The notes: generated from the letters alone by a model not told the origin. A DNA stretch of 61,896 nucleotides from Eledone cirrhosa (GCA_964016885.1 CAXHJY010001220.1:1-61896); one strand, 5' to 3'. Positions 383 through 61,675 are shown, counted from the first letter of the stretch. Made by a program: numbers and translations.

Positions 383-499
<117 letters not shown>

Positions 500-916: not shown

Positions 917-1109
917 GTAAGTACCCCCCACCCCCACCTCCACCCCCTAGTCGATCTGCAACTTAACAACAACCATTCAACTTCTCTCTCCCCCCTCCCC
1001 TCCCCCCATCTCATCTGTCTCGTCGCCTAATGTTTCCCTCTAATTAAAACAATAGCTCTTTTATTGCAAAAACACATTGGACAGTGAAGTCTTCATCTAT
1101 AACTATGAA

Positions 1110-1298
1110 GAGCGGTGAATTGGCAGTATCGGTAGAGGGTTGGACGCCATGCTTTCTAGCATAGTTACGTCCCTTTACAGTCTGAGTTCAAATCCGGTGA
1201 GGTTAACTTTGCCTTTCATCCTTACGGGGGTCGATAAAATAAAGTACCAGTAATGTACTGGGTAATTGCTGGCCTTGTGCCTAAAGTAGAAACAATTA
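1110..1298 (+). mobile_element. tRNA-derived SINE, main family (~190 bp; Nin-like central domain)
   Basis: A-box-like TGGCAGTATCGG, B-box-like GAGTTCAAATCC, central CTTTGCCTTTCATCCTTACGGGGTCGATAAAATAAAGTACCAG; >25 related copies in the window. Confidence 0.85.
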
Positions 1299-1371
1299 TA
1301 TATATATATGTATTATATATATATTATATATATATTATATATATAATATATATATATACTACATCATTATG

Positions 1372-1794
1372 ATCTGAGTTCAAATCCCGCCGGGGTAAAC
1401 TTTGCCTTTCATCCTTACGGGGGTCGATAAAATAAAGTACCAGTAATGTACTGGGTAATTGCTGGCCTTGTGCCTAAAGTAGAAACAATTATTATGAAGA
1501 ACGAAATAACCATCAGCTGTGAAATCTTGTATGAATTAATTCCATCTCAAAATTCCATCTCAAGTAAAAATGGATATTTTGAGAAAAAATTATTTTATAA
1601 TATAATTCATAGTTTGCATTATATGACTTATTGTGAATTAATATATATACTCTGTGGGAGGATGCACATATTTTCGTTCACATTGATCAAATGTACAATT
1701 GTTTCTACTTTTGACACAAGGCCAGCAATTACTCCAGTGCATTACTGGTATTTTATTTTATCGACCCAGTAAGGATGAATGGCAAAGTTAACTT
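1372..1794. mobile_element. Two partial SINE copies (1372-1492 +, 1697-1794 -)
   Basis: Match the 3' part of the SINE at 1110-1298. Confidence 0.8.
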
Positions 1795-1825
1795 ATATAT
1801 ATATATATATAATATATATATATAT

Positions 1826-2019
1826 ATAGGAACAAGTAAGACCCCGACGGCTGAGCTCAAGCCGTTTCGACGGCTAATTCTGGACTCAGAATTAGCCGTC
1901 GAAACGGCTTGAGCTCAGCCGTCGGGGTCTTACTTGTTCCTATTACCCACTCTTCTACCCTAAGTATTGAGTACTTTGGTGCGTTATGGTCCACCTGCTT
2001 CCTTACCACATTTCCTTCG

Positions 2020-2021
<2 letters not shown>
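1826..2021 (+). mobile_element. PLE-type terminal hairpin (family G) in (TA)n: ~57-bp perfect arms plus ~78-nt tail
   Basis: 1826-1882 is the exact reverse complement of 1887-1943; contains the 3' half of a hammerhead (GAAACGGC..GCCGTC); (TA)n on both sides. Confidence 0.7.
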
Positions 2022-2070
<49 letters not shown>

Positions 2071-2074
<4 letters not shown>

Positions 2075-2225
2075 TATGTATACGTACATACATATATGTA
2101 TACAGACGTACAGTAGTATGTGTATATATATACATACATGCACACATATATATATATGTACGTATGGATTTAAGTAACAGCCGTACTAACAGTGGGAAAT
2201 GATATTTTGTTTCATTTTTCCGTTT

Positions 2226-2229
<4 letters not shown>
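2071..2229 (+). mobile_element. TA-embedded terminal fragment (family H), related to 23568-23742
   Basis: Shared AAGTAACAGCCGTACTAA tail and GTATACAGACGTACAGTAGTATG segment. Confidence 0.55.
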
Positions 2230-2287
<58 letters not shown>

Positions 2288-2351
2288 CATATATATTATA
2301 TAGATATATTATATATATACTTACTGTCCAAATAATCATCTATTATTTCAG

Positions 2352-2456
2352 ACCTTGAATGACATGGGGGATTTGAAGCAGCTCGTGTCTAAAAAAAGAT
2401 TAGCTGCTGAACAGGAAATAAATCGATACTCTATAAGTTTTGAGTTTGAAAAGTAA
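2352..2456 (+). CDS. Candidate host coding exon, possibly terminal: TLNDMGDLKQLVSKKRLAAEQEINRYSISFEFEK*
   Basis: Preceded by TATTATTTCAG acceptor; 34 stop-free codons; followed by non-repetitive AT-rich UTR-like DNA containing AATAAA; protein not recognised. Confidence 0.4.
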   Translation, partial: TLNDMGDLKQLVSKKRLAAEQEINRYSISFEFEK

Positions 2457-3501
2457 AAAAAAGGTTATTTTTAAAGAAATTAAACGATAATTAATTCAGC
2501 TGAAATATTTAATGTTTAATTCGACATCATTTAGCTAAAACTAGTGTAACCCATTTGGTCTTGCTTTTTTTCTCCTCCCCACTCTCACCTTTGACTGATT
2601 TTTGAAGCCCTTCTAAGTTTATAGTCAGGAAACATATACGTATATATTAACATAAAATATACACATTTATTTATTTCACTGTACTATTATTTCCCGTTAA
2701 ACAAGTTTAAATATATTGAAATAGCTATTCCTTTAAAAGGTACACTTGATAAAATTCAAATTTTTATCTATTTATTAAAACGTTAAACGAGAACATTTTT
2801 ATTATTATTATTATTGTAAAGAGACACGTTTGATACAAATAGTATAGTCAGGTTCTATTTTTCCCATCGAGATGATACTGTAAATATTATTTTTTTCTTT
2901 ACAGGATTTGGGGTAAATAAATAAATTGAAAAGCATACATTTTTTTATCATTATTATGACAGTAATAACTGTAGGGCATTCTATTTTGGGTGAAGCCTTA
3001 AACCAAATGCTGATAGTTAACATAACGTTGTATATATTTTATCTCAAGCCATACATAGCTAAGTAAATGAAAATAAATTTCCAGTTGGCTTTAGCTTAAA
3101 ATTATAATTACTATTTTCCCGTGTTATATATAAACATGCATAGACAATTAGACACGGAACTTGATTGAATTGGCAGTAAACGGGATATATTTAGAAGATA
3201 TGAAAATTCAACATTTGCTTCAAGCAAAAATTAAAAGTAATAACTCAAACGTTAATTATATATGCAAGTATAAATTTTCAAAACCTACATAATTGTTTCT
3301 ACTTTAGGCACAAGGCCATCAATTACCCAGTGCATTACTGGTACTTTATTTTATCGACCCGGTAAGGATGAAAGGCAAAGTCAACCTCGGCAGGATTTGA
3401 ACTCAGATCGTAAAGGGACGTAACTATGCTGGAAAACATGGCGTCCGACCCTCTACCGATACTGCCAATCCTGTATTATATAAAGAGACATTCCGATCCA
3501 T

Positions 3502-3738
3502 CTAAGGATCTTTAGCTCCTGACAGAGTTGTAGGGTCTAAACACAACCAAATTAAACACTAATTTTATATGTGCGTTATCGTATAATCTTTGAAAAATTA
3601 CATAATTTATTCTATAAAGATGCATGCCCATCAGGCTAAGGGTCCTTCACTCTTGGTAGAGTGGCGGGGTCTAACCACAGCCAAATTAAACGATAATCAT
3701 ATGTAAATTATTCTATAATCTTTGAAAAACTACTTAAT
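3502..3738 (+). repeat. Two diverged tandem copies of a ~130-bp unit
   Basis: CTAAGG..GGGTCTAA.CACA.CCAAATTAAAC..TATAATCTTTGAAAAA occurs twice. Confidence 0.6.
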
Positions 3739-4184
3739 AGTGTCTACATTTAGCACAATGCTAGCAATTTGAAGGTAAGAGTAAAGCGTCGGTTAATTCG
3801 ACCCCCGTGGGTTACAGGTACTTTATTTTATCAGCCCTGTAAGGATGAAAGGCAATGCTAACCTCGGCAGGATTTGAATTCAGAACGGAAAGGACTGTAA
3901 CTGTATGCTGCTCTAACGGTATTTATATTTATCGATGACATGTGGATTGGCGGTCTGAGTTCAAATCCCGCCGAAGTTAACTTTGTCTTTCATCCTTACG
4001 GGGTCGATAAAATAAAGTACCAGTAATGCACTGGATAATTGCTGGCCTTGTGCCAAAATTAGAAACAATTATTTTAACAAACATTTCTCTGAAGAGTCCA
4101 TGTGGGTGAAACATTATGTAAGATTTATATAAACAACTTGTTTTAACAGCTTGCACCCCTTCATTCATTCATTTTTTATATAAG

Positions 4185-5388: not shown

Positions 5389-5961
5389 GTGTGCGTGTGC
5401 ATGTGTGTAACTTTTGCATTTGTATCCGTAGCTACAATTAAATGTAGGTGACGTCTTAAAGGTACAAATATATTCTTTTTATCTATGTATGTATGTAAAT
5501 ATATATATATATATATGATAGAGAGAGAGAGAGGGGGTAAGTATGTAGTTACATAGATATAGATATTTTTATGTATGTGTGTATATATATATATATATGA
5601 AAGAGAGAGAGAGAGAGGGGGTAAGTATGTAGTTACATAGATATAGATATTTTTATGTATGTGTGTATATATATATATATGTATCAGAAAACTAAAAATG
5701 TATCTACCGTTTCTTACGAACTTTTATATATATATCAACTTAATCCTACTCGATATTTGTAAACTTTAATAATTGCATTTCTCATATTCTCTTTAACACT
5801 AATATAAAGTCGAGCGTACAAGGAATCCCTTATACGGTCGGTTGACCAGCTAAAAATAGTAGTGTACCTTCCTCAAATCAGACCAACTGTCTTAAAAATG
5901 GAAGGAAAACAATGTATAACATAGCTAAAGAAAACGCTATGTATGAGTAAAAACACATTTG

Positions 5962-6620
5962 ATCATCACCATCATCATCCGGTGACCTCAGCCGAAATCG
6001 ACTCAACAATTGATCTCCACGTGGGTCTGTCGTTCATTGCCATTGCCAAGTCCTGGATTTCAATACCAGAATCTCTAGAGCTGACATCGGGTTAGGATTG
6101 CTTGCGCCCCCTGCTATTAGTGACTGCTTGTGGTTTCCAAAACACAAATGGGGGACACAGCCTCATAGTTGACACGATGGCAATGGCCAGCAAATCTTAC
6201 TCTCCTTTTACGTACAACGACAGATATGCGTGGGAGGCCAGCCTATATTTCTTTCAAAGTCAGATGTCGCCAGCTTATGTTCTGAATGTGTTAAAGCAGG
6301 CGAGTGTAGGTGCCATCAAGGTGCTTTTGTTGTTTGGATGAAAGCATCCATGTTTCACTTCCATATAGCAAGATTGGTTGAATTGTTACTTGGAAGAGTC
6401 TGATCTTGGTGTGGTTGGAAAGATTTGAGCGCCAATCTCGATCCATTTTGTTGCAAGCTGACCATGCATGGGCCTTTCTGGTGGTGAAATCCTTTTCAGA
6501 GTCCATGATCCAAGCTACTTGAAATCCTCGACTGCCGTTTATTGCTTTGATGCTGTTGCCTGTACAGTTTGATATGTATTCTGTTTTACCCTGCTCATTT
6601 AATGGCTGACCTGTGGCTAA
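5962..6620 (-). mobile_element. RTE-clade LINE, 3' fragment (frameshifted RT thumb/C-terminus) with (GAT)n tail
   Basis: RKAHAWSACNKM..WRSNLS..TKIRLF..TIQPILLYGSETW..LDGTYTRLL is a typical RTE ORF motif; ends in (CAT)n on +. Confidence 0.85.
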
Positions 6621-11032: not shown

Positions 11033-11922
11033 ATATTGTTATACTTTGGGAGGGTCATGTTGCCAATAAGAAACACACGCACCAGTTGTTTCACTTCAAT
11101 TTATTATATATTTATATATTTATAAATTTACAAATCTACAAATCTATAAATTTCTGGTTGGTTGGTTGGTTCCACAACCAGATAGTTGTTTATATATAGT
11201 CATAGTCCTTTCGTCACACACTCTGTGACCTCTTCAGTGACTGGGGATTCCTTTCTTTGTTTCTGTGCCTTTCCTTTCTTCTGTCCTACGCCATTTTGTT
11301 TCTGTGTGTGTGTTGTGTGCTCAGTTTGCGCATGCGCCACATCCGGGTGTCTGTGTGTGTTTGTGTTCATTTATCTATTTGTTTATTTATTTACATGTTG
11401 TTGGTTGGTTGTTTGTTCTATGTGTGTGTGTGTTTTCATTTTGTCCTTAATTGTAAGTTGTGATGTTGCTGTTCCACTCATATTTTCTATTTAATTTTGG
11501 TTGTAATTCTTTTATGTTTACTGCCTCTGTAATTTGTCTAAACATTGCATCTTTTCTGTGTCTAGATTCTATTTTTATTTCTATGCTCTCTAATTTACCC
11601 TTGTGTTCTATCTTAGCATGTTGGTAGAGTACAGATGATTCTTTATTATCTTGAAGGTCTCGCCAGTGTTCATTTATCCGTTGCCCTATACTACGAGCTG
11701 TCCCACCTATGTACACTATATTTTTGTTTCTACATTGTCCTTCAATACATCTTATGCTATACACTACATTTCTAGTTTTACAGTTAATATGGGGGCTTAT
11801 TTTACAGGTTATACATTTCTTATCTATACATGAGGGTCTTTGGAACGGGTATGTCTTGCTAATAAGTGTTTTTACGGAGGTACCTGGTCTTTCTACTATC
11901 TTAATATTGAGTTTATGTTTAT
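11033..11922 (-). mobile_element. Neptune-type PLE 3' fragment (family B) inside a (TA)n array
   Basis: GIY-YIG coding region plus 3' UTR with hammerhead; ends at ATGACCCTCCCAAAGTATAACAATAT into (TA)n. Confidence 0.88.
11198..11242 (-). ncRNA. Minimal hammerhead ribozyme in PLE 3' UTR
   Basis: AGUCA-CUGAAGA-G-GUCACA(gagug)UGUGAC-GAAAG(ga)CUA-UGACU; 5-bp stem I, 6-bp stem II. Confidence 0.75.
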
Positions 11923-17922: not shown

Positions 17923-18012
<90 letters not shown>

Positions 18013-18019
18013 ATATATT

Positions 18020-18453
18020 AGTTTTGCGAGGTTTTTTATATGAAATCCTGTGTCGAAACAAATATTGTTATACTTGGGGAGGGTCATATTTGTGTAATAA
18101 TATTGCTAGAATTAATAGCAGAACATACTCACTGTTTGGTTGGTTTTCGCTTCTGTGTCTTTTATATCGGTTAATTTAATTTATTCGGTCCTCAATGTTA
18201 ACCATTGACTGACCAACGGTCAAAAATACAGATACAATCTAGACACAAACACATATATATATATAGTCTAACAAAATTCTTTCGTTGCACATCTGCAACA
18301 TCGTCAGTGGTGCTATTATGTTTCCTCCCGTTGTATTGTATGCCTACACCACCTTTATTTAGTCTGTTTATTTATTTATTTATTTATTTAGTGAGTGTGT
18401 TCTGTTATTAATTCTGGCAATATTATTACACAAATATGACCCTCCCCAAGTAT

Positions 18454-18461
<8 letters not shown>
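18020..18461. mobile_element. PLE fold-back insertion (family A, same family as the giant palindrome)
   Basis: Tailed arm 18020-18390 (-) matches ~59940-60322; short inverted arm 18390-18461 ends at TATAACAATAT. Confidence 0.85.
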
Positions 18462-19167: not shown

Positions 19168-19175
<8 letters not shown>

Positions 19176-19334
19176 ATACGTGGGTAGGCTCATATTTTTG
19201 TAATAATATTGCCAGAATTAATAACAGAACACACTCACTTATTAATTCTGGCAATATTATTACAACAATGACCCTCCCCAAGTATAACAATATTTGTTTC
19301 GACACACGATTACATATCAAAAACCTCGCAAAAC
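19168..19334. mobile_element. Minimal PLE fold-back insertion (family A termini only)
   Basis: Short arm 19168-19240 (-); tailed arm 19239-19334 (+) ending AAACCTCGCAAAAC. Confidence 0.8.
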
Positions 19335-19342
19335 TATATATA

Positions 19343-21228: not shown

Positions 21229-22405
21229 ATATCTTTAAGTCGTTTGGAAGCCTCGACAATGCAAATGGGTAAATCTCCGGGTAACAAGGTCCGGTGGTGG
21301 AGAGAGAGATGTAAGTGGGTGTAAATGGCCCCTCCCTGCGAAGATGCCTCTCCAGGAAACCCGAAAAATCTACTTACGCATGCTCCCTCAGAGACTGTCC
21401 GATACGCCATGCTAACTGTTGCCTACGCACATACGTCGTGTATAAGATAGAATGTGACAGGTGCAACCAATACTACATAGGTAGCACAATTCGACCTTTG
21501 CACATCCGGATCAAGGAACACACTAAAACCAGGGCCTCGTCTTTCCGGAAACACATAGACAAATGCGGAAACAAAGACGGAAGGCCCATTGTCACAATTC
21601 TAGCGACTGAAAGAAACGTCGGCACGTTACGTATCAAAGAAGCGCGTTTTATCAAACGACTGCAACCGCAAATAAACAACCGATCAGAGAGAAGCGAAAT
21701 GAAATGGCTGGTTTAAGTTAACAAGCGATGCAACAACACACAACACACGCACGCACACACGCAAACGAGACAACTACACACACACACGCACACACACACA
21801 GTAGCATTCCACCATACGAACATACTACACTGCCAATACAGATGAACAAGGCAACAACACACACACACACACACAATCAAGCGAGACAACAACACACGCA
21901 CACACACACACAGTAACATTTAACAAACAGGCAGAGAATGGACTGACAGCTAGCGCCATCCCACTCCCTCATTCGGCCGCTGACCTCTGTACGACCGACC
22001 CCATTTCACGCGCACGCGCGCTCTGCCGAATACCTCAGATATTCAAAACAACAAACAGCGAAAGACGCGTTCCGGACTTGTCCGACAGACAACCTTTTCC
22101 CCCACCCGGAAAAAAAACCCAGTTGATGGATGTGAATCCGAAATATATAGGGACTATTAAATCTCTCCCAAGGTAACTCTCTCTTGTGTTGTTATTTTTA
22201 TTTTTATCCTTTATACTCTTCCCTTCATTCTACACATCTCACACATCTTATATACACCACGCATCTCAACGTACATCCACTTACATCTCTCTCTCCACCA
22301 CCGGACCTTGTTACCCGGAGATTTACCCATTTGCATTGTCGAGGCTTCCAAACGACTTAAAGATATTTACTTATTGTTCCACAATGCTTCAAGCAAACTT
22401 CAATA

Positions 22406-29197: not shown

Positions 29198-32100
29198 CTG
29201 GCCGAGTGGTCAGGGTGTTGAACTTATGGTCTTAATGTGGTGTGGCCGAGTGGTCAGGGTGTTGAACTTATGGTCTTAATGTGGTGTGGCCGAGTGGTCA
29301 GGGCGTTGAACTTATGGTCTTAATGTGGTGTGGCCGAGTGGTCAGGGCGTTGAACTTATGGTCTTAATGTGGTGTGGCCGAGTGGTCAGGGTGTTGAACT
29401 TATGGTCTTAATGTGGTGTGGGCGAGTGGTCAGGGCGTTGAACTTATGGTCTTAATGTGGTGTGGCCGAGTGGTCAGGGTGTTGAACTTATGGTCTTAAT
29501 GTGGTGTGGCCGAGTGGTCAGGGTGTTGAACTTATGGTCTTAATGTGGTGTGGCCGAGTGGTCAGGGCGTTGAACTTATGGTCTTAATGTGGTGTGGCCG
29601 AGTGGTCAGGGTGTTGAACTTATGGTCTTAATGTGGTGTGGCCGAGTGGTCAGGGCGTTGAACTTACGATCTTAATGTGGTGTGGCCGAGTGGTCAGGGT
29701 GTTGAACTTATGGTCTTAATGTGGTGTGGCCGAGTGGTCAGGGTGTTGAACTTATGGTCTTAATGTGGTGTGGCCGAGTGGTCAGGGTGTTGAACTTATG
29801 ATCTTAATGTGGTGTGGCCGAGTGGTCAGGGTGTTGAACTTATGATCTTAATGTGGTGTGGCCGAGTGGTCAGGGTGTTGAACTTACGATCTTAATGTGG
29901 TGTGGCCGAGTGGTCAGGGTGTTGAACTTATGATCTTAATGTGGTGTGGCCGAGTGGTCAGGGTGTTGAACTTACGATCTTAATGTGGTGTGGCCGAGTG
30001 GTCAGGGTGTTGAACTTATGATCTTAATGTGGTGTGGCCGAGTGGTCAGGGTGTTGAACTTATGATCTTAATGTGGTGTGGCCGAGTGGTCAGGGTGTTG
30101 AACTTACGATCTTAATGTGGTGTGGCCGAGTGGTCAGGGTGTTGAACTTATGATCTTAATGTGGTGTGGCCGGGTGGTCAGGGTGTTAAACTTATGATCT
30201 TAATGTGGTGTGGCCGAGTGGTCAGGGTGTTAAACTTATGATCTTAATGTGGTGTGGCCGAGTGGTCAGGGGTGTTGAACTTATGATCTTAATGTGGTGT
30301 GGCCGAGTGGTCAGGGTGTTGAACTTATGATCTTAATGTGGTGTGGCCCGGGTGGTCAGGGTGTTGAACTTATGATCTTAATGTGGTGTGGCCGAGTGGT
30401 CAGGGTGTTGAACTTATGATCTTAATGTGGTGTGGCCGAGTGGTCAGGGTGTTGAACTTATGATCTTAATGTGGTGTGGCCGAGTGGTCAGGGTGTTGAA
30501 CTTATGATCTTAATGTGGTGTGGCCGAGTGGTCAGGGTGTTTGAACTTATGATCTTAATGTGGTGTGGCCGAGTGGTCAGGGTGTTGAACTTATGATCTT
30601 AATGTGGTGTGGCCGGGTGGTCAGGGTGTTGAACTTATGATCTTAAGTGTGGTGTGGCCGAGTGGTCAGGGTGTTGAACTTATGATCTTAATGTGGTGTG
30701 GCCGAGTGGTCAGGGTGTTGAACTTATGATCTTAATGTGGTGTGGGCCGAGTGGTCAGGGTGTTGAACTTATGATCTTAATGTGGTGTGGCCGGGTGGTC
30801 AGGGTGTTGAACTTATGGTCTTAATGTGGTGTGGCCGAGTGGTCAGGGTGTTGAACTTATGGTCTTAATGTGGTGTGCCGAGTGGTCAGGGTGTTGAACT
30901 TACGATCTTAATGTGGTGTGCCGGGTGGTCAGGGTGTTGAACTTACGATCTTAATGTGGTGTGGCAGAGTGGTCAGGGTGTTGAACTTACGATCTTAATG
31001 TGGTGTGGCCGAGTGGTCAGGGTGTTGAACTTACGATCATAATGTGGTGTGGCCGAGTGGTCAGGGTGTTGAACTTACGATCATAATGTGGTGTGGCCGA
31101 GTGGTCAGGGTGTTGAACTTACGATCATAATGTGGTGTGGCCGAGTGGTCAGGGTGTTGAACTTACGATCATAATGTGGTGTGGCCGAGTGGTCAGGGTG
31201 TTGAACTTACGATCATAATGTGGTGTGGCCGAGTGGTCAGGGTGTTGAACTTACGATCATAATGTGGTGTGGCCGAGTGGTCAGGGTGTTGAACTTACGA
31301 TCATAATGTGGTGTGGCCGAGTGGTCAGGGTGTTGAACTTACGATCTTAATGTGGTGTGGCCGAGTGGTCAGGGTGTTGAACTTATGATCATAATGTGGT
31401 GTGGCCGAGTGGTCAGGGTGTTGAACTTACGATCATAATGTGGTGTGGCCGAGTGGTCAGGGTGTTGAACTTATGGTCTTAATGTGGTGTGGCCGAGTGG
31501 TCAGGGTGTTGAACTTATGATCTTAATGTGGTGTGGCCGAGTGGTCAGGGTGTTGAACTTATGATCTTAATGTGGTGTGGCCGAGTGGTCAGGGTGTTGA
31601 ACTTATGATCTTAATGTGGTGTGGCCGAGTGGTCAGGGTGTTGAACTTATGGTCTTAATGTGGTGTGGCCGAGTGGTCAGGGCGTTGAACTTATGGTCTT
31701 AATGTGGTGTGGCCGAGTGGTCAGGGCGTTGAACTTATGGTCTTAATGTGGTGTGGCCGAGTGGTCAGGGTGTTGAACTTATGGTCTTAATGTGGTGTGG
31801 CCGAGTGGTCAGGGCGTTGAACTTATGGTCTTAATGTGGTGTGGCCGAGTGGTCAGGGTGTTGAACTTATGGTCTTAATGTGGTGTGGCCGAGTGGTCAG
31901 GGTGTTGAACTTATGGTCTTAATGTGGTGTGGCCGAGTGGTCAGGGCGTTGAACTTATGGTCTTAATGTGGTGTGGCCGAGTGGTCAGGGTGTTGAACTT
32001 ATGGTCTTAATGTGGTGTGGCCGAGTGGTCAGGGCGTTGAACTTACGATCTTAATGTGGTGTGGCCGAGTGGTCAGGGTGTTGAACTTATGGTCTTAATG

Positions 32101-34330
32101 TGGTGTGGCCGAGTGGTCAGGGTGTTGAACTTATGGTCTTAATGTGGTGTGGCCGAGTGGTCAGGGTGTTGAACTTATGATCTTAATGTGGTGTGGCCGA
32201 GTGGTCAGGGTGTTGAACTTATGATCTTAATGTGGTGTGGCCGAGTGGTCAGGGTGTTGAACTTACGATCTTAATGTGGTGTGGCCGAGTGGTCAGGGTG
32301 TTGAACTTATGATCTTAATGTGGTGTGGCCGAGTGGTCAGGGTGTTGAACTTACGATCTTAATGTGGTGTGGCCGAGTGGTCAGGGTGTTGAACTTATGA
32401 TCTTAATGTGGTGTGGCCGAGTGGTCAGGGTGTTGAACTTATGATCTTAATGTGGTGTGGCCGAGTGGTCAGGGTGTTGAACTTACGATCTTAATGTGGT
32501 GTGGCCGAGTGGTCAGGGTGTTGAACTTATGATCTTAATGTGGTGTGGCCGGGTGGTCAGGGTGTTAAACTTATGATCTTAATGTGGTGTGGCCGAGTGG
32601 TCAGGGTGTTAAACTTATGATCTTAATGTGGTGTGGCCGAGTGGTCAGGGTGTTGAACTTATGATCTTAATGTGGTGTGGCCGAGTGGTCAGGGTGTTGA
32701 ACTTATGATCTTAATGTGGTGTGGCCGGGTGGTCAGGGTGTTGAACTTGTGATCTTAATGTGGTGTGGCCGAGTGGTCAGGGTGTTGAACTTATGATCTT
32801 AATGTGGTGTGGCCGAGTGGTCAGGGTGTTGAACTTATGATCTTAATGTGGTGTGGCCGAGTGGTCAGGGTGTTGAACTTATGATCTTAATGTGGTGTGG
32901 CCGAGTGGTCAGGGTGTTGAACTTATGATCTTAATGTGGTGTGGCCGAGTGGTCAGGGTGTTGAACTTATGATCTTAATGTGGTGTGGCCGGGTGGTCAG
33001 GGTGTTGAACTTATGATCTTAATGTGGTGTGGCCGAGTGGTCAGGGTGTTGAACTTATGATCTTAATGTGGTGTGGCCGAGTGGTCAGGGTGTTGAACTT
33101 ATGATCTTAATGTGGTGTGGCCGAGTGGTCAGGGTGTTGAACTTATGATCTTAATGTGGTGTGGCCGGGTGGTCAGGGTGTTGAACTTATGGTCTTAATG
33201 TGGTGTGGCCGAGTGGTCAGGGTGTTGAACTTATGGTCTTAATGTGGTGTGGCCGAGTGGTCAGGGTGTTGAACTTACGATCTTAATGTGGTGTGGCCGG
33301 GTGGTCAGGGTGTTGAACTTACGATCTTAATGTGGTGTGGCAGAGTGGTCAGGGTGTTGAACTTACGATCTTAATGTGGTGTGGCCGAGTGGTCAGGGTG
33401 TTGAACTTACGATCATAATGTGGTGTGGCCGAGTGGTCAGGGTGTTGAACTTACGATCATAATGTGGTGTGGCCGAGTGGTCAGGGTGTTGAACTTACGA
33501 TCATAATGTGGTGTGGCTGAGTGGTCAGGGTGTTGAACTTACGATCATAATGTGGTGTGGCCGAGTGGTCAGGGTGTTGAACTTACGATCATAATGTGGT
33601 GTGGCCGAGTGGTCAGGGTGTTGAACTTACGATCATAATGTGGTGTGGCCGAGTGGTCAGGGTGTTGAACTTACGATCTTAATGTGGTGTGGCCGAGTGG
33701 TCAGGGTGTTGAACTTATGATCATAATGTGGTGTGGCCGAGTGGTCAGGGTGTTGAACTTACGATCATAATGTGGTGTGGCCGAGTGGTCAGGGTGTTGA
33801 ACTTATGGTCTTAATGTGGTGTGGCCGAGTGGTCAGGGTGTTGAACTTATGATCTTAATGTGGTGTGGCCGAGTGGTCAGGGTGTTGAACTTATGATCTT
33901 AATGTGGTGTGGCCGAGTGGTCAGGGTGTTGAACTTATGATCTTAATGTGGTGTGGCCGAGTGGTCAGGGTGTTGAACTTATGATCTTAATGACATGTGG
34001 CTGAGTGGTCAGGGTGTTGAACTTACGATCTTAATGTGGTGTGGCCGAGTGGTCAGGGTGTTGAATTTATGATCTTAATGACATGTGGCTGAGTGGTCAG
34101 GGTGTTGAACTTACGATCTTAATGTGGTGTGGCCGAGTGGTCAGGGTGTTGAACTTATGATCTTAATGACATGTGGCTGAGTGGTCAGGGTGTTGAACTT
34201 ACGATCTTAATGTGGTGTGGCCGAGTGGTCAGGGTGTTGAACTTATGATCTTAATGACATGTGGCTGAGTGGTCAGGGTGTTGAACTTACGATCTTAATG
34301 TGGTGTGGCCGAGTGGTCAGGGTGTTGAAC
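29198..34330 (+). repeat. 44-bp tandem satellite (~117 units) derived from a SINE tRNA head
   Basis: Unit GTGGCCGAGTGGTCAGGGTGTTGAACTTATGATCTTAATGTGGT; contains A-box TGGCCGAGTGG. Confidence 0.95.
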
Positions 34331-34344
34331 TTATGATCATAATG

Positions 34345-34610
34345 TCACGTGGCCGAGTGGTAAATGTGTTGGATTTGCGATCATAATGTCATGGGCTCGA
34401 ATCCTGGACTGAGTTGTGTGTTGTGTTTTTGAGCAAAATGCTTCATTTCACGTTACTCCAATATACTCAGTTGAAAATAAGTACCAGTAATAGCTGGGGG
34501 TTTAATCCTGTGTCCTATCCAGTGGGAGAGTCTTGTACTCTTGGTTGCTTAACGCCACAGAAATCAGAATATGCACCAGCATGATGAGCCCCCGGGCTTG
34601 AGACAGACTT
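34345..34610 (+). mobile_element. tRNA/CORE-type SINE, likely parent of the satellite
   Basis: TGGCCGAGTGG..GGCTCGAATCC B-box, then TTGTGTTTTTGAGCAAAATGCTTCATTTCACGTTACTCCA CORE-like domain. Confidence 0.75.
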
Positions 34611-37099: not shown

Positions 37100-37320
37100 T
37101 CTTGAGCTGTGATCTCTCAATTCGGAAACATGTGGTTCTAACCTGAAGCGACTCTTTGATCTCTATCAAATAATGTTAATCCAAAGACCCTTCGGAAGAA
37201 CACTATGTCAGCAGCTTGAATTCGCGATCGTATTATTTCGGTCATTACCCAAGATTCATAACCATGGGTAAGAGTTGGCACGAATATTAAATCGAAGATA
37301 GCGAGTTTGGCTTTTACACC
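37100..37320 (-). mobile_element. RTE-clade LINE fragment
   Basis: Reverse complement translates VKAKLAIFDLIFVPTLTHGYESWVMTEIIRSRIQAADIVFFRRVFGLTLFDR..RIERSQL. Confidence 0.8.
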
Positions 37321-39945
37321 TACCTCCTACCAGTAAACTACAGCTTTTACAGCTACCTCCTACCAGTAAACTATAGCTTTTACAGCTACCTCCTACCAGT
37401 AAACTATAGCTTTTACACCTACCTCCTACCAGTAAACTATAGCTTTTACAGCTACCTCCTACCAGTAAACTACAGCTTTTACACCTACCTCCTACCAGTA
37501 AACTATAGCTTTTACAGCTACCTCCTACCAGTAAACTATAGCTTTTACAGCTACCTCCTACCAGTAAACTATAGCTTTTACAGCTACCTCCTACCAGTAA
37601 ACTATAGCTTTTACACCTACCTCCTACCAGTAAACTACAGCTTTTACAGCTACCTCCTACCAGTAAACTAGAGCTTTTACAGCTACCTCCTACCAGTAAA
37701 CTATAGCTTTTACAGCTACCTCCTACCAGTAAACTATAGCTTTTACAGCTACCTCCTACCAGTAAACTATAGCTTTTACAGCTACCTACTACCAGTAAAC
37801 TATAGCTTTTACAGCTACCTCCTACCAGTAAACTACAGCTTTTACAGCTACCTCCTACCAGTAAACTATAGCTTTTACAGCTACCTCCTACCAGTAAACT
37901 GTAGCTTTTACAGCTACCTCCTACCAGTAAACTATAGCTTTTACAGCTACCTCCTACCAGTAAACTATAGCTTTTACACCTACCTCCTACCAGTAAACTA
38001 CAGCTTTTACAGCTACCTCCTACCAGTAAACTATAGCTTTTACAGCTACCTCCTACCAGTAAACTATAGCTTTTACACCTACCTCCTACCAGTAAACTAC
38101 AGCTTTTACAGCTACCTCCTACCAGTAAACTGTAGCTTTTACACCTACCTCCTACCAGTAAACTACAGCTTTTACAGCTACCTCCTACCAGTAAACTATA
38201 GCTTTTACAGCTACCTCCTACCAGTAAACTATAGCTTTTACAGCTACCTCCTACCAGTAAACTGTAGCTTTTACACCTACCTCCTACCAGTAAACTATAG
38301 CTTTTACAGCTACCTCCTACCAGTAAACTATAGCTTTTACAGCTACCTCCTACCAGTAAACTGTAGCTTTTACACCTACCTCCTACCAGTAAACTACAGC
38401 TTTTACAGCTACCTCCTACCAGTAAACTATAGCTTTTACAGCTACCTCCTACCAGTAAACTATAGCTTTTACAGCTACCTCCTACCAGTAAACTATAGCT
38501 TTTACAGCTACCTCCTACCAGTAAACTATAGCTTTTACAGCTACCTCCTACCAGTAAACTGTAGCTTTTACACCTACCTCCTACCAGTAAACTATAGCTT
38601 TTACAGCTACCTCCTACCAGTAAACTATAGCTTTTACAGCTACCTCCTACCAGTAAACTATAGCTTTTACAGCTACCTCCTACCAGTAAACTGTAGCTTT
38701 TACACCTACCTCCTACCAGTAAACTATAGCTTTTACAGCTACCTCCTACCAGTAAACTAGAGCTTTTACAGCTACCTCCTACCAGTAAACTACAGCTTTT
38801 ACAGCTACCTCCTACCAGTAAACTAGAGCTTTTACAGCTACCTCCTACCAGTAAACTATAGCTTTTACAGCTACCTCCTACCAGTAAACTATAGCTTTTA
38901 CACCTACCTCCTACCAGTAAACTACAGCTTTTACAGCTACCTCCTACCAGTAAACTAGAGCTTTTACAGCTACCTCCTACCAGTAAACTATAGCTTTTAC
39001 ACCTACCTCCTACCAGTAAACTACAGCTTTTACAGCTACCTCCTACCAGTAAACTAGAGCTTTTACAGCTACCTCCTACCAGTAAACTATAGCTTTTACA
39101 GCTACCTCCTACCAGTAAACTATAGCTTTTACAGCTACCTCCTACCAGTAAACTACAGCTTTTACAGCTACCTCCTACCAGTAAACTAGAGCTTTTACAG
39201 CTACCTCCTACCAGTAAACTATAGCTTTTACAGCTACCTCCTACCAGTAAACTACAGCTTTTACAGCTACCTCCTACCAGTAAACTACAGCTTTTACACC
39301 TACCTCCTACCAGTAAACTACAGCTTTTACAGCTACCTCCTACCAGTAAACTGTAGCTTTTACAGCTACCTCCTACCAGTAAACTATAGCTTTTACAGCT
39401 ACCTCCTACCAGTAAACTATAGCTTTTACAGCTACCTCCTACCAGTAAACTATAGCTTTTACAGCTACCTCCTACCAGTAAACTATAGCTTTTACAGCTA
39501 CCCCCTACCAGTAAACCATAACTAGATAGTATTCTTTCGGTCATTACCCAAGATTCATGACCATAGGTAAGAGTTGTTACGAATACTAAATTGAAGATAG
39601 CGAGTTTTGGCTTTTACACCTACCTCCTACCAGTAAACTATAGCTTTTACAGCTACCTCCTACCAGTAAACTATAGCTTTTACAGCTACCCCCTACCAGT
39701 AAACCATAACTAGATAGTATTCTTTCGGTCATTACCCAAGATTCATGACCATAGGTAAGAGTTGTTACGAATACTAAATTTAAGATAGCGAGTTTTGGCT
39801 TTTACACCTACCTCCTACCAGTAAACTATAGCTTTTACAGCTACCTCCTACCAGTAAACTGTAGCTTTTACAGCTACCTCCTACCAATAAACTGTAGCTT
39901 TTACACCTACCTCCTACCAGTTAATTTTGGCCTATACACCTACCT
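37310..39945. repeat. 33-bp minisatellite (~67 units to 39520, then ~190-bp higher-order units containing RTE sequence)
   Basis: Unit TACAGCTACCTCCTACCAGTAAACTATAGCTTT; gives the stop-free (SYSLLVGGSCK)n frame 37256-39544 (-). Confidence 0.95.
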
Positions 39946-40024
39946 CCCTTCTTCTGATAGCCGAATACTGATGCTCTGGTATTGTTCATGTAGAGATTTA
40001 CAGTGTGTAAGCAAATTGTTCAGC

Positions 40025-51837: not shown

Positions 51838-54600
<2,763 letters not shown>

Positions 54601-54811
54601 ATATTGTTATATTTGGGGAGGGTCATATTTGCGTAATATTGCCAGAATTAATAACAGAACACACTCACTGTTTGGTTGGTTTTCGCTTCTCGCTGTCTTT
54701 TATATATATATATCTGCGATCTAACTTACTCGGTCCTCAATGTTGCCATTGACTGACCGGCGGTCAAAAATAATACAGATACAATATAGACAAACACATA
54801 TATATATAGTT

Positions 54812-54856
54812 TACATAAATCTTTCGTTGCACATCTGCAACATCGTCAGTGGTGTT
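54812..54856 (-). ncRNA. Hammerhead-like motif in PLE 3' UTR (left arm)
   Basis: Mirror of 60026-60070. Confidence 0.5.
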
Positions 54857-55122
54857 ATATTCATTGTTCCTCCTGTTGTGTTGTATGTCTACGCCATTTT
54901 TTTTTGTTCAGTCTGTCTATATATTTATTTATTTATTTGCTTGTTTGTTTATCTTATTTTATTTTGTCTTCTTTGCGCATGCGTTTGCGTGTGTGTATAG
55001 TGTTATGTGTGATGTGTGACTAGTGTGTATAGTGTTGTGTCTGCTGGGTGACTAGTGTGTGTTTATGTGCTTGTGTATGTATTTATTTATCTTATTTTAT
55101 TTAATTTAATTTACTTATTTAT

Positions 55123-57441
55123 TTATACTTCTCTTAGGTCAGTGTTGTTTGTTTGGGTGTTGTTGTTGTTCCACTCATTCTTTCTGTTTAGCTTTGGTCT
55201 TCTAATTTCTATTTCACTGGCCTCTCTGATTTGCCTATCTGCTGGGTCATTCCTATGTTTAGATATTATTCTAATTTCTATGTTGTCTATGTTACCGTCA
55301 TGATGTTGTCTAGCATGTTCGTATAGTACTGACCCGTTTTTTCGTCCTTTTAGTTCCCCCCAGTGTTGGTCTATCCTTTCACCTATGCTACGAGCTGTCT
55401 CACCTATGTATGTTGTTGTCGTGTTTCTGCAAGTACCCTCTGTACATCTTATGCTATAGACTACGTTTCTAGTTTTACAGTTTATCCGGGGGTTCACCTT
55501 ACATATGATACATTTCCTATTGGTACAGTGGGTTTTCTTAAAAGGGTAGGTTTTGCTGATCAGGGATTTTATGGTGGTTCCTGGCTTTTCTACCACCTTT
55601 ATTTTTAAGTGGGTCTTTCTCAGGGCCTTTCTACACTGGTTAGCTAATTTCCCTCCAGGGGTGGCGTCCACAAACATGACACTCTGATATCTCTGGTTGT
55701 CGTACCATGATGTGGCCTTCCCTATCTTATGTCTAGCCCTATCTAAGCTATTCCATGATTTGCTCCTGTATAGTGGGCAAATTCCTTTCATGTCCAGTTC
55801 TATGAGGGTCTTATACTTTTCCATGGCTCCTTCGTATACTCTGACTCTGTCTCTTTGGTTGTAGCCAGAGAACTGCATGCGGTTGATGAAGTGTTGGATG
55901 TGTCCTTCCATTTCTGTTGGGTCGCACATGCTGGACACATTCTTCATCACTCGTACCAAATCTGCGATCAGAATATTAAACTTAGCACTACTGGACATTG
56001 CTGAGTTTTTGAGTATCAGGTATTTGGAGGCCATGGGTTTAGCATAGTGTGAGTGGAGAATTTGGGCTCTCTCGTCTATAGTGTTAATCCAGAGTTCTGT
56101 GTCTAATACAGGTAGTCTATTGTTAGGGTGTTTGGAAGGGAAGTCTATAGTTACAGTTATACTCTGGTGTATGGAATTAGCTATCTGCTGGATGCTTTCC
56201 ATCGTGCTACGTTCTAAATCAAACTTGTTAGTGCTCTCTAGTGGGGGTGTTCTTATAACTATATTGATATCGTCTACATAACGAGAGTACATGATGAGGT
56301 CTATGGAGCTTTCATTAAGGAGATCTTTAAGTCTCCTTTCCCACCATACCATGAAAAGGTTGGCAACATCGCCAGCTATGCTGACGCCGATGGCTGCTCC
56401 CTCATTTTGGGTGTAGATTTTCTCATTGAACTTAAATATGTGGCCCTTTAGGGTAGTTTTGATACTAGCCCCTATTGCATGTGCGACCATTTTTCTTACC
56501 TGATCAGTGTTTTGGGGGGTCCGTATAGCTTTGGTCCACCCAATCCACCTTCCTATGGGAGTCTTTTTAGCCATTGAGGTTATGGTGGGGGGTCTACCTC
56601 TTATAGGTCTACTAGGGCAGAAACATCTAAGGTCATGGCTGTCTAGGTAGTCAGTGTCGTAGGTAAGTCTAAGTAGGAGGCCCAGTTCGTCTGTGTCGAC
56701 GTCGCAGAACTCCACCTCACTCTCAATGATCATCTCCACACATCTTTTCACAGCAAAATCAATGTTAATGGATGGGTACAGTGACACCACATCCATGCTG
56801 CCTATTATGCAGTTGGATAGGCTCCTGTTTTTGTTGCACTCACTGATTCTGCTGAGGAGGTCCTCTGTACTTTCACATACATCTGGGGACATCTTGATTA
56901 TGGGGCGTATAACCATTGAGAGGAAGTAGGAGATCCTGTAGTTGCTAGCTATATTAGCTCCGCATACGGGTCTTGTTGGTGGTCCTATTGTCGGGTCGTC
57001 GACTGTCTTGTGGTCTTTGCGGAGCCCATACAAGGGTGGTATGCCATTGTTAGACGCCTGGAAGTTGTTGGCAGTGCGTCTGCTTGGCTTTAGGATGTCA
57101 GTCCACATCATCATGTGAGCGTTGAGGATTTTTTCTCTCCCATCGTGTGTTAGTTGTGCAACTTCGCTCGTGTTGGTGATGTGGGGTTGCATTGCCTCGA
57201 TGTAGTTCGGCATGCTATCTATTGACATCCTACCAGACTTATCTGTGGGTAGACACACTACCTCACCATCCCTTGTGCGCTGCTTGAGGCTAACCAAGCC
57301 TTCTACAGGTTTTATCCCAAGTTGTTGGGCCTCTGGTCTGCTCTGTCTCATAGTGTACCTGTCTACTACTTGTCTAATCTTATTTCTAGCTATGGTGAAC
57401 TGTGCCTCCGTCTCGTCATCTATTTGTTGTGGTATGCAAAC
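55123..57441 (-). CDS. PLE reverse transcriptase + Cys-rich linker + GIY-YIG endonuclease; uninterrupted ~770 codons but 5'-truncated (no native start)
   Basis: TDKSG, PPLYGLRKDHK, PTRPV, SMDVVSLYPSI, GAAIG, RYVDD, LPVLD, YAKPMAS, SGY, CxxxxCxxC linker, VVYSIRC..YIGETARS..R..H..REA..PKLN. Confidence 0.93.
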   Translation of the reverse strand, partial: VCIPQQIDDETEAQFTIARNKIRQVVDRYTMRQSRPEAQQLGIKPVEGLVSLKQRTRDGEVVCLPTDKSGRMSIDSMPNYIEAMQPHITNTSEVAQLTHDGREKILNAHMMMWTDILKPSRRTANNFQASNNGIPPLYGLRKDHKTVDDPTIGPPTRPVCGANIASNYRISYFLSMVIRPIIKMSPDVCESTEDLLSRISECNKNRSLSNCIIGSMDVVSLYPSINIDFAVKRCVEMIIESEVEFCDVDTDELGLLLRLTYDTDYLDSHDLRCFCPSRPIRGRPPTITSMAKKTPIGRWIGWTKAIRTPQNTDQVRKMVAHAIGASIKTTLKGHIFKFNEKIYTQNEGAAIGVSIAGDVANLFMVWWERRLKDLLNESSIDLIMYSRYVDDINIVIRTPPLESTNKFDLERSTMESIQQIANSIHQSITVTIDFPSKHPNNRLPVLDTELWINTIDERAQILHSHYAKPMASKYLILKNSAMSSSAKFNILIADLVRVMKNVSSMCDPTEMEGHIQHFINRMQFSGYNQRDRVRVYEGAMEKYKTLIELDMKGICPLYRSKSWNSLDRARHKIGKATSWYDNQRYQSVMFVDATPGGKLANQCRKALRKTHLKIKVVEKPGTTIKSLISKTYPFKKTHCTNRKCIICKVNPRINCKTRNVVYSIRCTEGTCRNTTTTYIGETARSIGERIDQHWGELKGRKNGSVLYEHARQHHDGNIDNIEIRIISKHRNDPADRQIREASEIEIRRPKLNRKNEWNNNNTQTNNTDLREV

Positions 57442-59758
57442 TTTGCATACCACAACAAATAGATGACGAGACGGAGGCACAGTTCACCATAGCTAGAAAT
57501 AAGATTAGACAAGTAGTAGACAGGTACACTATGAGACAGAGCAGACCAGAGGCCCAACAACTTGGGATAAAACCTGTAGAAGGCTTGGTTAGCCTCAAGC
57601 AGCGCACAAGGGATGGTGAGGTAGTGTGTCTACCCACAGATAAGTCTGGTAGGATGTCAATAGATAGCATGCCGAACTACATCGAGGCAATGCAACCCCA
57701 CATCACCAACACGAGCGAAGTTGCACAACTAACACACGATGGGAGAGAAAAAATCCTCAACGCTCACATGATGATGTGGACTGACATCCTAAAGCCAAGC
57801 AGACGCACTGCCAACAACTTCGAGGCGTCTAACAATGGCATACCACCCTTGTATGGGCTCCGCAAAGACCACAAGACAGTCGACGACCCGACAATAGGAC
57901 CACCAACAAGACCTGTATGCGGAGCTAATATAGCTAGCAACTACAGGATCTCCTACTTCCTCTCAATGGTTATACGCCCCATAATCAAGATGTCCCCAGA
58001 TGTATGTGAAAGTACAGAGGACCTCCTCAGCAGAATCAGTGAGTGCAACAAAAACAGGAGCCTATCCAACTGCATAATAGGCAGCATGGATGTGGTGTCA
58101 CTGTACCCATCCATTAACATTGATTTTGCTGTGAAAAGATGTGTGGAGATGATCATTGAGAGTGAGGTGGAGTTCTGCGACGTCGACACAGACGAACTGG
58201 GCCTCCTACTTAGACTTACCTACGACACTGACTACCTAGACAGCCATGACCTTAGATGTTTCTGCCCTAGTAGACCTATAAGAGGTAGACCCCCCACCAT
58301 AACCTCAATGGCTAAAAAGACTCCCATAGGAAGGTGGATTGGGTGGACCAAAGCTATACGGACCCCCCAAAACACTGATCAGGTAAGAAAAATGGTCGCA
58401 CATGCAATAGGGGCTAGTATCAAAACTACCCTAAAGGGCCACATATTTAAGTTCAATGAGAAAATCTACACCCAAAATGAGGGAGCAGCCATCGGCGTCA
58501 GCATAGCTGGCGATGTTGCCAACCTTTTCATGGTATGGTGGGAAAGGAGACTTAAAGATCTCCTTAATGAAAGCTCCATAGACCTCATCATGTACTCTCG
58601 TTATGTAGACGATATCAATATAGTTATAAGAACACCCCCACTAGAGAGCACTAACAAGTTTGATTTAGAACGTAGCACGATGGAAAGCATCCAGCAGATA
58701 GCTAATTCCATACACCAGAGTATAACTGTAACTATAGACTTCCCTTCCAAACACCCTAACAATAGACTACCTGTATTAGACACAGAACTCTGGATTAACA
58801 CTATAGACGAGAGAGCCCAAATTCTCCACTCACACTATGCTAAACCCATGGCCTCCAAATACCTGATACTCAAAAACTCAGCAATGTCCAGTAGTGCTAA
58901 GTTTAATATTCTGATCGCAGATTTGGTACGAGTGATGAAGAATGTGTCCAGCATGTGCGACCCAACAGAAATGGAAGGACACATCCAACACTTCATCAAC
59001 CGCATGCAGTTCTCTGGCTACAACCAAAGAGACAGAGTCAGAGTATACGAAGGAGCCATGGAAAAGTATAAGACCCTCATAGAACTGGACATGAAAGGAA
59101 TTTGCCCACTATACAGGAGCAAATCATGGAATAGCTTAGATAGGGCTAGACATAAGATAGGGAAGGCCACATCATGGTACGACAACCAGAGATATCAGAG
59201 TGTCATGTTTGTGGACGCCACCCCTGGAGGGAAGTTAGCTAACCAGTGTAGAAAGGCCCTGAGAAAGACCCACTTAAAAATAAAGGTGGTAGAAAAGCCA
59301 GGAACCACCATAAAATCCCTGATCAGCAAAACCTACCCTTTTAAGAAAACCCACTGTACCAATAGGAAATGTATCATATGTAAGGTGAACCCCGGATAAA
59401 CTGTAAAACTAGAAACGTAGTCTATAGCATAAGATGTACAGAGGGTACTTGCAGAAACACGACAACAACATACATAGTTGAGACAGCTCGTAGCATAGGT
59501 GAAAGGATAGACCAACACTGGGGGGAACTAAAAGGACGAAAAAACGGGTCAGTACTATACGAACATGCTAGACAACATCATGACGGTAACATAGACAACA
59601 TAGAAATTAGAATAATATCTAAACATAGGAATGACCCAGCAGATAGGCAAATCAGAGAGGCCAGTGAAATAGAAATTAGAAGACCAAAGCTAAACAGAAA
59701 GAATGAGTGGAACAACAACAACACCCAAACAAACAACACTGACCTAAGAGAAGTATAA
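57441..59758 (+). pseudogene. Mirror copy of the PLE ORF; 1-bp deletion at ~59390 frameshifts off the GIY-YIG domain, and YIG>YIV at 59478
   Basis: GAACCCCGG vs GAACCCCCGG and TACATAGTTGAG vs TACATAGGTGAG in the left arm. Confidence 0.9.
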
Positions 59759-60025
59759 ATAAATAAGTAAATTAAATTAAATAAAATAAGATAAATAAAT
59801 ACATACACAAGCACATAAACACACACTAGTCACCCAGCAGACACAACACTATACACACTAGTCACACATCACACATAACACTATACACACACGCAAACGC
59901 ATGCGCAAAGAAGACAAAATAAAATAAGATAAACAAACAAGCAAATAAATAAATAAATATATAGACAGACTGAACAAAAAAAAAATGGCGTAGACATACA
60001 ACACAACAGGAGGAACAATGAATAT

Positions 60026-60070
60026 AACACCACTGACGATGTTGCAGATGTGCAACGAAAGATTTATGTA
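60026..60070 (+). ncRNA. Hammerhead-like motif in PLE 3' UTR (right arm)
   Basis: CUGACGA-U-GUUGCA(gaug)UGCAAC-GAAA; core and stem II good, stems I/III weak; also at ~18272-18312 (-). Confidence 0.5.
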
Positions 60071-60319
60071 AACTATATATATATGTGTTTGTCTATATTG
60101 TATCTGTATTATTTTTGACCGCCGGTCAGTCAATGGCAACATTGAGGACCGAGTAAGTTAGATCGCAGATATATATATATAAAAGACAGCGAGAAGCGAA
60201 AACCAACCAAACAGTGAGTGTGTTCTGTTATTAATTCTGGCAATATTACGCAAATATGACCCTCCCCAAATATAACAATATCTGTTTCGACACACGATTT
60301 CATATAAAAAACCTCGCAA

Positions 60320-60322
<3 letters not shown>

Positions 60323-60356
<34 letters not shown>

Positions 60357-60445
60357 TATATATATATATACAAATATATATATATACATATATACAAATA
60401 TATATATATACATATATACAAATATATATATATATATACATATAT

Positions 60446-60480
<35 letters not shown>

Positions 60481-60516
60481 AATATATATATATATACAAA
60501 TATATATATATATACA

Positions 60517-60592
<76 letters not shown>

Positions 60593-60653
60593 CATATATA
60601 CAAATATATATATATGTATATATATATACATATATACAAATATATATATATAC

Positions 60654-60715
<62 letters not shown>

Positions 60716-60747
60716 CAAATATATATATATATATATATACAAATATA
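60323..60747. repeat. Compound (TA)n/(TACAAATA) microsatellite
   Basis: Direct inspection. Confidence 0.95.
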
Positions 60748-61675
60748 TTGGGCATCCTAAATTTTTTGAAATGATCTTTCCTAGATGCGATTTGATAGAT
60801 AATTTTTGGCTTTATCTGTTTTTCGACTCTGATGCTTATAATGAACTTGGCAATATATTGTCAATTAATTTTGAAGGGTTGATCTTTGTGGTTTATTTTT
60901 ATTTTTATTATTGTAGTATTTTCTAATATTTTTATTTTTAATATGTAAATTTTTTAATATGTAATATTTTTAATATGTAATATTCTTTCGTAATATTTTT
61001 TAGTTTTCTATTTTATTATTACTTATTATTATTATTATTGTTATTTTTTAGTTTTGTTTCTGATATATATTTTTATTAGTATATTGAAATCTGCTCTCTA
61101 TTTCTGCTTGATAGATAATCTTGTAGAGTAAAGACAGGAATACTAATATTGACTCTATATATATTTGTGTGTATATATATACACATATATGTATACTTAA
61201 ATTTTTATACCACATTGAGAATGTTTTCCGTTTGCAGAGTTGATCATGGAGATTCACATAGATGTTTGTAGTTATCACATAAACATATGAATTTTTTTAA
61301 AAAACTAAACATAAGATCATTAATTTTCACACATTATGGTTACATGTCTCATTCAGGAATACTGATATTTACAATATAGTGGCTGGTTTTATAAATACTA
61401 ATACCTCTACATTAAAACATAGGGTTTTTACGCCTCGCCTATGTCTGGATATTTTTAAATTTTTTCTCTCTCTATATTTTTTCTCTCTCTATATTTTTTC
61501 TCTCTATATATATTTTTTCTCTCTCTATATAACAGCTGGTTTCTCTCCATATATCTCCCTTACATTAATACTAGAGCTAAATAAATAAATAAATAAATAA
61601 ATGTATCATTGATACGTTTACTCAACAGACGTCCCACTACCTAGTTTTCTATATATATGTATCTATCTCTATTTC

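Follow-up and report, generated by a model that had tools for sequence, protein, structure and literature searches.

The question raised by one locus of Eledone cirrhosa is how a retroelement comes to lie in a genome as two head-to-head copies of itself, kilobases long and joined through a single base. The window analyzed here is one entire contig (CAXHJY010001220.1; 61,896 nt, or 61.9 kb) from a 3.0-Gb assembly of 1796 contigs (GCA_964016885.1). A sequence-only reading had proposed that positions 54601 to 60322 form a spacerless palindrome built from a Neptune-type PLE. Arm-to-arm alignment bore out the palindrome, with 2840-nt arms around a single C at 57441. As had also been claimed, the arms differ by only four substitutions (right-arm positions 57822, 57914, 59234, and 59478) and two 1-nt homopolymer indels (59389 and 59976); three private substitutions and a 1-nt deletion belong to the tailed (right) arm. 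Comparison with the native family sequence showed that the center base is the left arm's native next base and that one T is common to both arms at this point. The locus and two related copies in the window are laid out as follows.

53505..54600, no strand: left target, an interrupted (TA)n array
54601..57441, minus strand: tail-less arm, a 5'-truncated PLE copy including the center base (arm proper, 54601-57440), covering the unit from position 1248 as far as its proximal end
57442..60281, plus strand: tailed arm, a 5'-truncated PLE copy whose first unit position is 1249
60282..60322, plus strand: one-sided tail of 41 nt, present on the right and absent on the left
60323..60747, no strand: right target, an interrupted (TA)n array
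18012..18461, no strand: older short head-to-head family copy, 84-93% identical, with the tail on one side
19168..19342, no strand: older short head-to-head family copy, 88-91% identical, with a 15-nt offset and the tail on one side

Whether the structure exists in the genome was considered first. A library or assembly artefact, either a fold-back read or a collapsed spacer, draws some plausibility from the contig being short and separate, from the right arm's four changes, which are missing from other copies and from four other sequencing runs, and from approximately 200 nt of mirrored flank (about 54390-54565 is the inverted counterpart of the first 200 nt of the right flank). However, had a read folded back, tail and flank should both be mirrored around 57441, whereas the tail is one-sided, the outer flanks of the palindrome are unrelated, and the flank mirror has a separate axis near 54575. 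Among 91 head-to-head pairs on the largest contig, 11 have this junction type as well (see below). The sequence-only reading had pointed to the asymmetric ends of the two small copies, and each of these indeed has one tailed and one tail-less end. With the family's standard ends on the outside, differing flanks, and recurrence on a chromosome-scale contig, the palindrome is very probably a real structure, and we regard an artefact as improbable. DNA searches with the flanks for the allele on large contigs gave repeats only among the best 40 candidates for each. In three contig sets that carry the family, apparently from other individuals, the junction was not seen and native upstream sequence stood in its place; one run of raw reads placed no read at the locus, and among the 21 runs listed none matched all sampled words of the locus and none was an RNA data set. 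The arm differences were also considered as a trace of editing, which was rejected because the four changes are of four kinds.

Several further features of the window were recorded. The (TA)n target has a fold-back of its own (54390-54600 and 60323-60520) about the axis near 54575, and the element was inserted approximately 25 nt away; a surplus of approximately 15 nt of TA at the insertion may be a target duplication. In the right flank, 60748-61560 is the end of another high-copy repeat, found elsewhere in inverted and tandem pairs and possibly a second PLE family. Older GIY-YIG endonuclease coding fragments of other PLE-like families lie at 11460-11908 and 21315-21713, and 29199-34397 and 37310-39947 are taken up by long minisatellite arrays, built of 44-nt and 33-nt units, whose GC skews are strong and opposite. 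Inspection by eye of frames of at least 90 amino acids for a host gene near the locus showed only repeat-derived or low-complexity frames, with short exons still possible, and an Rfam search of the locus matched no RNA family.

Next, the identity of the element was examined by translation and motif searches. The full unit, taken from a natural tandem copy, is 4135 nt long and carries an ORF of 1217 codons from stop to stop, or 1210 from the first Met; this Met sits in the terminal repeat of the unit, and each arm therefore takes in a few codons of the following ORF before it ends. The coding and RNA features of the palindrome are as follows.

55123..57441, minus strand: open, 5'-truncated ORF of 772 native residues with DKS motif, RT core, linker, and GIY-YIG core
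56269-56289, minus strand (left arm): YVDD of the RT core
55498-55530, minus strand (left arm): CX4CxxC linker
55396-55464, minus strand (left arm): GIY-YIG core with two internal cysteines
57442..59758, plus strand: the same ORF, interrupted by a frameshift around 59389, with YIG>YIV at 59478
60033..60075, plus strand: minimal hammerhead motif (CUGACGA core, unpaired U, 6-bp helix II, GAAA), a putative ribozyme
54807..54849, minus strand: mirror hammerhead motif of the left arm

The single ORF carries an RT followed by a C-terminal GIY-YIG endonuclease, the canonical PLE arrangement. The RT assignment rests on a Pfam RVT_1 match (E value of 2e-4, under the curated cut-off), whereas GIY-YIG was unmatched in the Pfam search of the ORF, and its VVY/YIG core with R, H, E, and N residues was read from the translation. 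Atlas neighbors at 0.96-0.98 carry RVT_1, HTH_animal, and GIY-YIG. Two cysteines in 55429-55446, between the GIY and YIG halves, and His residues downstream constitute the CCHH motif of canonical endonuclease-bearing PLEs, as defined in PMC8557442. The same account describes a full CX2-5CxxC linker in Neptune, a reduced one in Nematis, and none in Penelope/Poseidon; the CX4CxxC linker found here is of the Neptune kind. The microsatellite bias of Neptune is matched in this family, in which approximately 2,000 ends of each type adjoin (TA)n; the patterns used for these counts demand TA repeats, yet partner ends sampled without that anchor also mostly run into (TA)n. The partial tandem units of approximately 4.1 kb, the inverted 5'-truncated copies, and the one-sided tail complete the PLE architecture. 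The assignment to a Neptune-type PLE is thus supported, as a clade label drawn from motifs matched to the description in PMC8557442. The hammerhead was recognized by motif (as defined in PMC4209133), with core, bulged U, and 6-bp helix II at 60033-60060; its fold z-score is only −0.24, and in Rfam the motif had no match. Elsewhere in the family, the N-terminal part of the ORF holds an asparagine-rich stretch of approximately 160 codons in an unbroken frame (locus L031, about 5720-6210).

The left frame had been called intact, and it is open through RT and GIY-YIG; it is also 5'-truncated, holding 772 of 1210 residues, with approximately 438 N-terminal codons missing. Translation confirmed the frameshift and the YIG>YIV change claimed for the right arm. 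Both arms begin at unit position 1248-1249 and so lack these codons and the upstream pLTR of an autonomous copy. A product without the 5' third of the ORF and without an upstream sense pLTR should be a dead copy, for which no function of its own is predicted.

The outer ends of the palindrome are the two standard ends of the family, 41 nt apart, each fused to (TA)n. Genome-wide counts by exact pattern (3.0 Gb) put the tail-less ends that join (TA)n at 2043 and the tailed ends at 846 plus 1167, a ratio near 1:1 that is approximate, as the patterns admit older subfamilies unequally. The larger of the two tailed counts belongs to a third standard end, 16 nt past the 41-nt tail (L031 5052-5069; 1167 exact matches versus 846), which points to three TA-compatible initiation sites rather than two. 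The sequence-only reading had inferred a very young insertion from a recently active family. Recent activity of the family stood: 29 of 49 long copies, in a set partly chosen for likeness, are one substitution from the left arm in 2300 nt. Exceptional youth of this copy was not supported: its private substitutions per 2.3 kb (0 and 3 in the two arms) compare with a median of 3 in 30 arms on the largest contig, which makes it typical of the family; private substitutions cannot tell age from RT or sequencing errors. The family is also nearly identical in runs X1, X2, X3, and X5, labelled as four different organisms, which may be close relatives or reflect recent transfer; the X1 run contains an 821-nt family contig with one difference.

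The junctions of the family were then surveyed on C1, the largest, chromosome-scale contig. Sample 1 comprised the first 100 tail-less ends, and sample 2, a replicate, comprised 60 tailed ends from farther on. Loci were classed by a fixed mapping rule, under which 49/100 and 42/60 were head-to-head (91/160 in total); excluded from sample 1 were 15/100 loci too diverged for mapping and 36 without a mapped partner within 60 nt (several of them with very short tailed pieces), and 18/60 loci were excluded from sample 2. In sample 2, the partner of the tailed end stopped no more than 7 nt from the proximal site in 36/42 pairs and was itself tailed in 1/42. Offsets of 5 nt or less between the two truncation points occurred in 7/49 pairs of sample 1 (permutation mean of 0.47, reached in 0/100,000 shuffles) and in 5/42 pairs of sample 2 (permutation mean of 0.64, P = 3e-4). 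This excess persisted when a poly-A hot spot was removed from sample 1 (4/44; mean of 0.27, P = 5e-5), and offsets of 25 nt or less were likewise frequent (13/49 versus a permutation mean of 2.18, and 9/42 versus 1.63). Across the 91 pairs, centers of 0-1 nt were found in 11, of 2-6 nt in 4, and of 12-24 nt in 5. A 0-1-nt center was thus present in about one in eight sampled head-to-head pairs; loci L096 and L098 (with 7-bp stems), L159, and L195 were kept out of this tight-center count. The overlap between arms was −1 to 2 nt in eight of the 11 tight centers and 3-6 nt, on native micro-palindromes, in three, and no base at all is paired at L059 and L203. Center positions range across the whole unit, from 162 to 4058. 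These results demonstrate that the 1-nt center is a recurrent junction class of this PLE family.

Long relatives of the palindrome are also present on C1. L118 has 2.9-kb arms and a 13-nt loop, and L182 has 1.9-kb arms and a 6-nt loop; two near-perfect palindromes with arms of at least 1.9 kb among 160 loci extrapolate to approximately 25 genome-wide (95% range of about 3-90). None of the 160 loci combined kilobase arms with a center of 2 nt or less (0/12 pairs with both arms at least 1 kb), and the copy in the window is therefore the extreme of a common class. Spacerless palindromes of this size had been said to persist rarely, a claim that found no support in this small sample: offsets of 25 nt or less occurred in 3 of the 12 pairs with both arms of at least 1 kb, one of which jumps after approximately 45 nt, versus 19/79 shorter pairs. 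A truncation hot spot near the window's center, hinted at by L159 and L040, was rejected (3/72 ends in unit positions 1180-1270, P = 0.29). In the family at large, 5' truncation points are concentrated at an A-run (unit 3780-3796, window about 59970-59985) that closely follows a native micro-palindrome, and four of the 11 tight centers lie there. Six central junctions (L052, L062, L101, L122, L177, and L199) hold repeated or templated inserts of nearby element sequence and in this resemble joining of the polymerase-theta type.

The alleles carried by the two arms were compared at family-polymorphic sites, with the expected disagreement being that for a partner arm drawn from another insertion. 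The arms disagreed in 0/85 comparisons of sample 1 (22.1 expected), in which three repeat-adjacent sites holding four apparent discordances were left out, and in 10/399 comparisons of sample 2 (93.1 expected), in which low-complexity sites were left out; all 10 are in four older loci. Thus, the arms of one insertion almost always carry the same source haplotype, and two unrelated source RNAs per insertion are rejected. Both arms in the window carry the commonest haplotype except at 57914, where they have different family alleles, which happens only once in 167 comparisons. The minor allele there is the left arm's, on a haplotype background found in no other arm, and for this reason we read 57914 as a recurrent mutation or an error.

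Gene conversion between arms could contribute to the shared haplotypes. In a stronger form, an ordinary offset insertion would later have lost its spacer or been homogenized by gene conversion, as might be expected of long inverted repeats, which are recombinogenic (PMC7999016). Yet short copies with near-identical arms already have 0-1-nt centers (L059 and L087, each with 0 arm differences), and homogenization is far from complete: among substitutions seen in no other insertion, in 25 pairs, 21 are on one arm only and 9 on both. We consider such later remodelling of an offset insertion very unlikely.

These findings were used to frame a mechanism for the junction. We lean, with somewhat better than even confidence, towards a single head-to-head insertion of a young PLE into (TA)n in which two primed cDNAs of one transcript were joined end to end. 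Both cut target strands would prime reverse transcription on one source transcript; both cDNAs would be copied along one RNA molecule, with the cDNA behind displacing the one in front, and would stop at the same place, either the RNA end or the displacement fork. The 3' end of one cDNA could then be extended on the other through 0-2 paired bases (one T in the present case), which would leave a spacerless palindrome, while one cDNA stopping early would give the usual offset junction. Biochemical precedent exists for the first step, since a PLE protein cuts and extends both target strands and starts reverse transcription at two RNA sites flanking the tail (PMC11167929). Either arm may be the longer one (the tail-less arm in 20 and the tailed arm in 14 of the 47 sample 1 pairs without a tandem left arm), so the two ends were probably primed separately, which fits the priming reported in vitro in PMC11167929. 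The same count of 20/47 led us to reject fold-back of a tail-primed cDNA alone as a general route.

One source and tight centers fit a second route as well. In this snap-back route, both strands are primed, and one cDNA folds on its own 3' end and extends itself until it meets the other, so that one arm would largely be a DNA-templated copy of its partner. Shared alleles, both polarities, and small offsets are all accounted for in this way. Loops of 6-24 nt with 1-4 paired bases exist (L182, L118, L148, and L181), L053 (and, more weakly, L096 and L098) shows a short mirror followed by a jump, the three tight centers with overlaps of 3-6 nt lie on native micro-palindromes, and junctions made by cDNA snap-back have been documented in cells for R2 proteins (PMC11371274). 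A loop of 3 nt can be closed by non-templated bases, and the window's center itself adjoins a native 3-bp stem with a 3-nt loop; such stems occur within 2 nt of 5.8% of positions. A hairpin loop, however, requires several unpaired bases (4-6; PMC7999016), and the centers show the opposite of this prediction, those of 0-1 nt (11/91) outnumbering those of 2-6 nt (4/91), with L059 and L203 having no paired base. End-to-end joining is favored on account of this excess. The overlaps of −1 to 2 nt in 8/11 tight centers also agree with the best range for template jumping, which for an RT is +1 or +2 nt (PMC8857657). Sequence by itself cannot separate end-to-end joining from snap-back of one cDNA, and we rate snap-back as the less likely route but one to be taken seriously.

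A further possibility, self-priming on an antisense transcript, was offered for palindromes at inverted junctions of rotifer Penelope elements (PMC3846280) and would also yield a head-to-head palindrome. Alone, it does not account for a pair of fixed outer ends that join (TA)n at near 1:1. Moreover, sense RNA primes at both tail boundaries in vitro (PMC11167929), and the centers are scattered over the whole unit. We therefore view antisense self-priming as a very improbable source of this structure. Returning to end-to-end joining, it is plausible, though somewhat short of even odds, that PLEs in general finish integration by two target-primed reverse transcriptions on one RNA followed by joining of cDNA ends; spacerless palindromes, up to kilobases long, would then be routine products, with the approximately 25 long ones here tolerated by the genome.

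In model systems, long palindromes without a spacer are recombinogenic (PMC7999016), and siRNAs from Penelope inverted repeats have been reported in Drosophila (PMC3681739). Because sense transcription of the element runs away from the center on both arms, hairpin RNA from this locus, which the sequence-only reading had suggested as a potential endo-siRNA source or ADAR substrate, would require read-through from outside. The family forms a graded natural palindrome series, with centers from 0 to several hundred nt and arms from 40 nt to 3.3 kb, in which the stability of palindromes in an animal genome and their output of hairpin RNA could be studied. How tandem and inverted PLE structures form is named as an open question in PMC8557442 and PMC11167929, and second-strand synthesis and junction formation are left unvalidated in the account given in PMC11167929. 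This family is young and abundant enough for measuring how such structures arise, and its junction statistics constrain how PLEs complete integration: one source per insertion, both polarities, and the 0-1-nt excess yield predictions for the existing in vitro PLE system.

A literature search returned no report measuring junction offsets or arm haplotypes in PLEs, key subscription papers being outside its scope. In LINE-1 twin priming, the 5' part of the element is inverted without duplication. The Eledone arms, unlike those products, are two copies of one 3' part, and their ends fall at fixed sites of the element. The likeness to LINE-1 twin priming and to R2 snap-back (PMC11371274) lies in a second strand or cDNA end that primes and in very short microhomology. 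Among endonuclease-bearing PLEs (Penelope/Poseidon, Neptune, Nematis, and Naiad; Craig et al. 2021, PMC8557442; Adineta vaga, PMC3846280), the published norm, as here, is an inverted copy that is 5'-truncated, with a tail on one side. Partial tandems, a (TA)n target, a palindrome at the inverted junction, and an N-rich stretch in the ORF are likewise described for published PLEs and found in the Eledone family. The inverted-junction palindromes given in these accounts, however, measure 18-38 bp, whereas in the present locus the two arms, 2.84 kb long, are truncated at one and the same base; the two tailed ends of the family are 41 and 57 nt long, and the length quoted for published PLEs is 30-40 bp. 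In the Eledone ORF, the N-rich stretch is on the N-terminal side of the RT, unlike in the PLEs of these descriptions, and the N-rich inserts of rotifer Penelopes are similar but differ in position. Poseidon PAc of Anolis (Frangieh et al. 2024, PMC11167929) also ends shortly inside the ORF start, has two initiation sites flanking the tail, uses an AT-rich target, and has a hammerhead in the pLTR (here a motif only). PAc belongs to a different clade and has no linker Zn-finger, and in the Eledone family, unlike in PAc as described there, each end shares TA microhomology with the target. The inverted repeats of Drosophila Penelope (PMC3681739) resemble the present locus in being long and in that they would give dsRNA if transcribed through.
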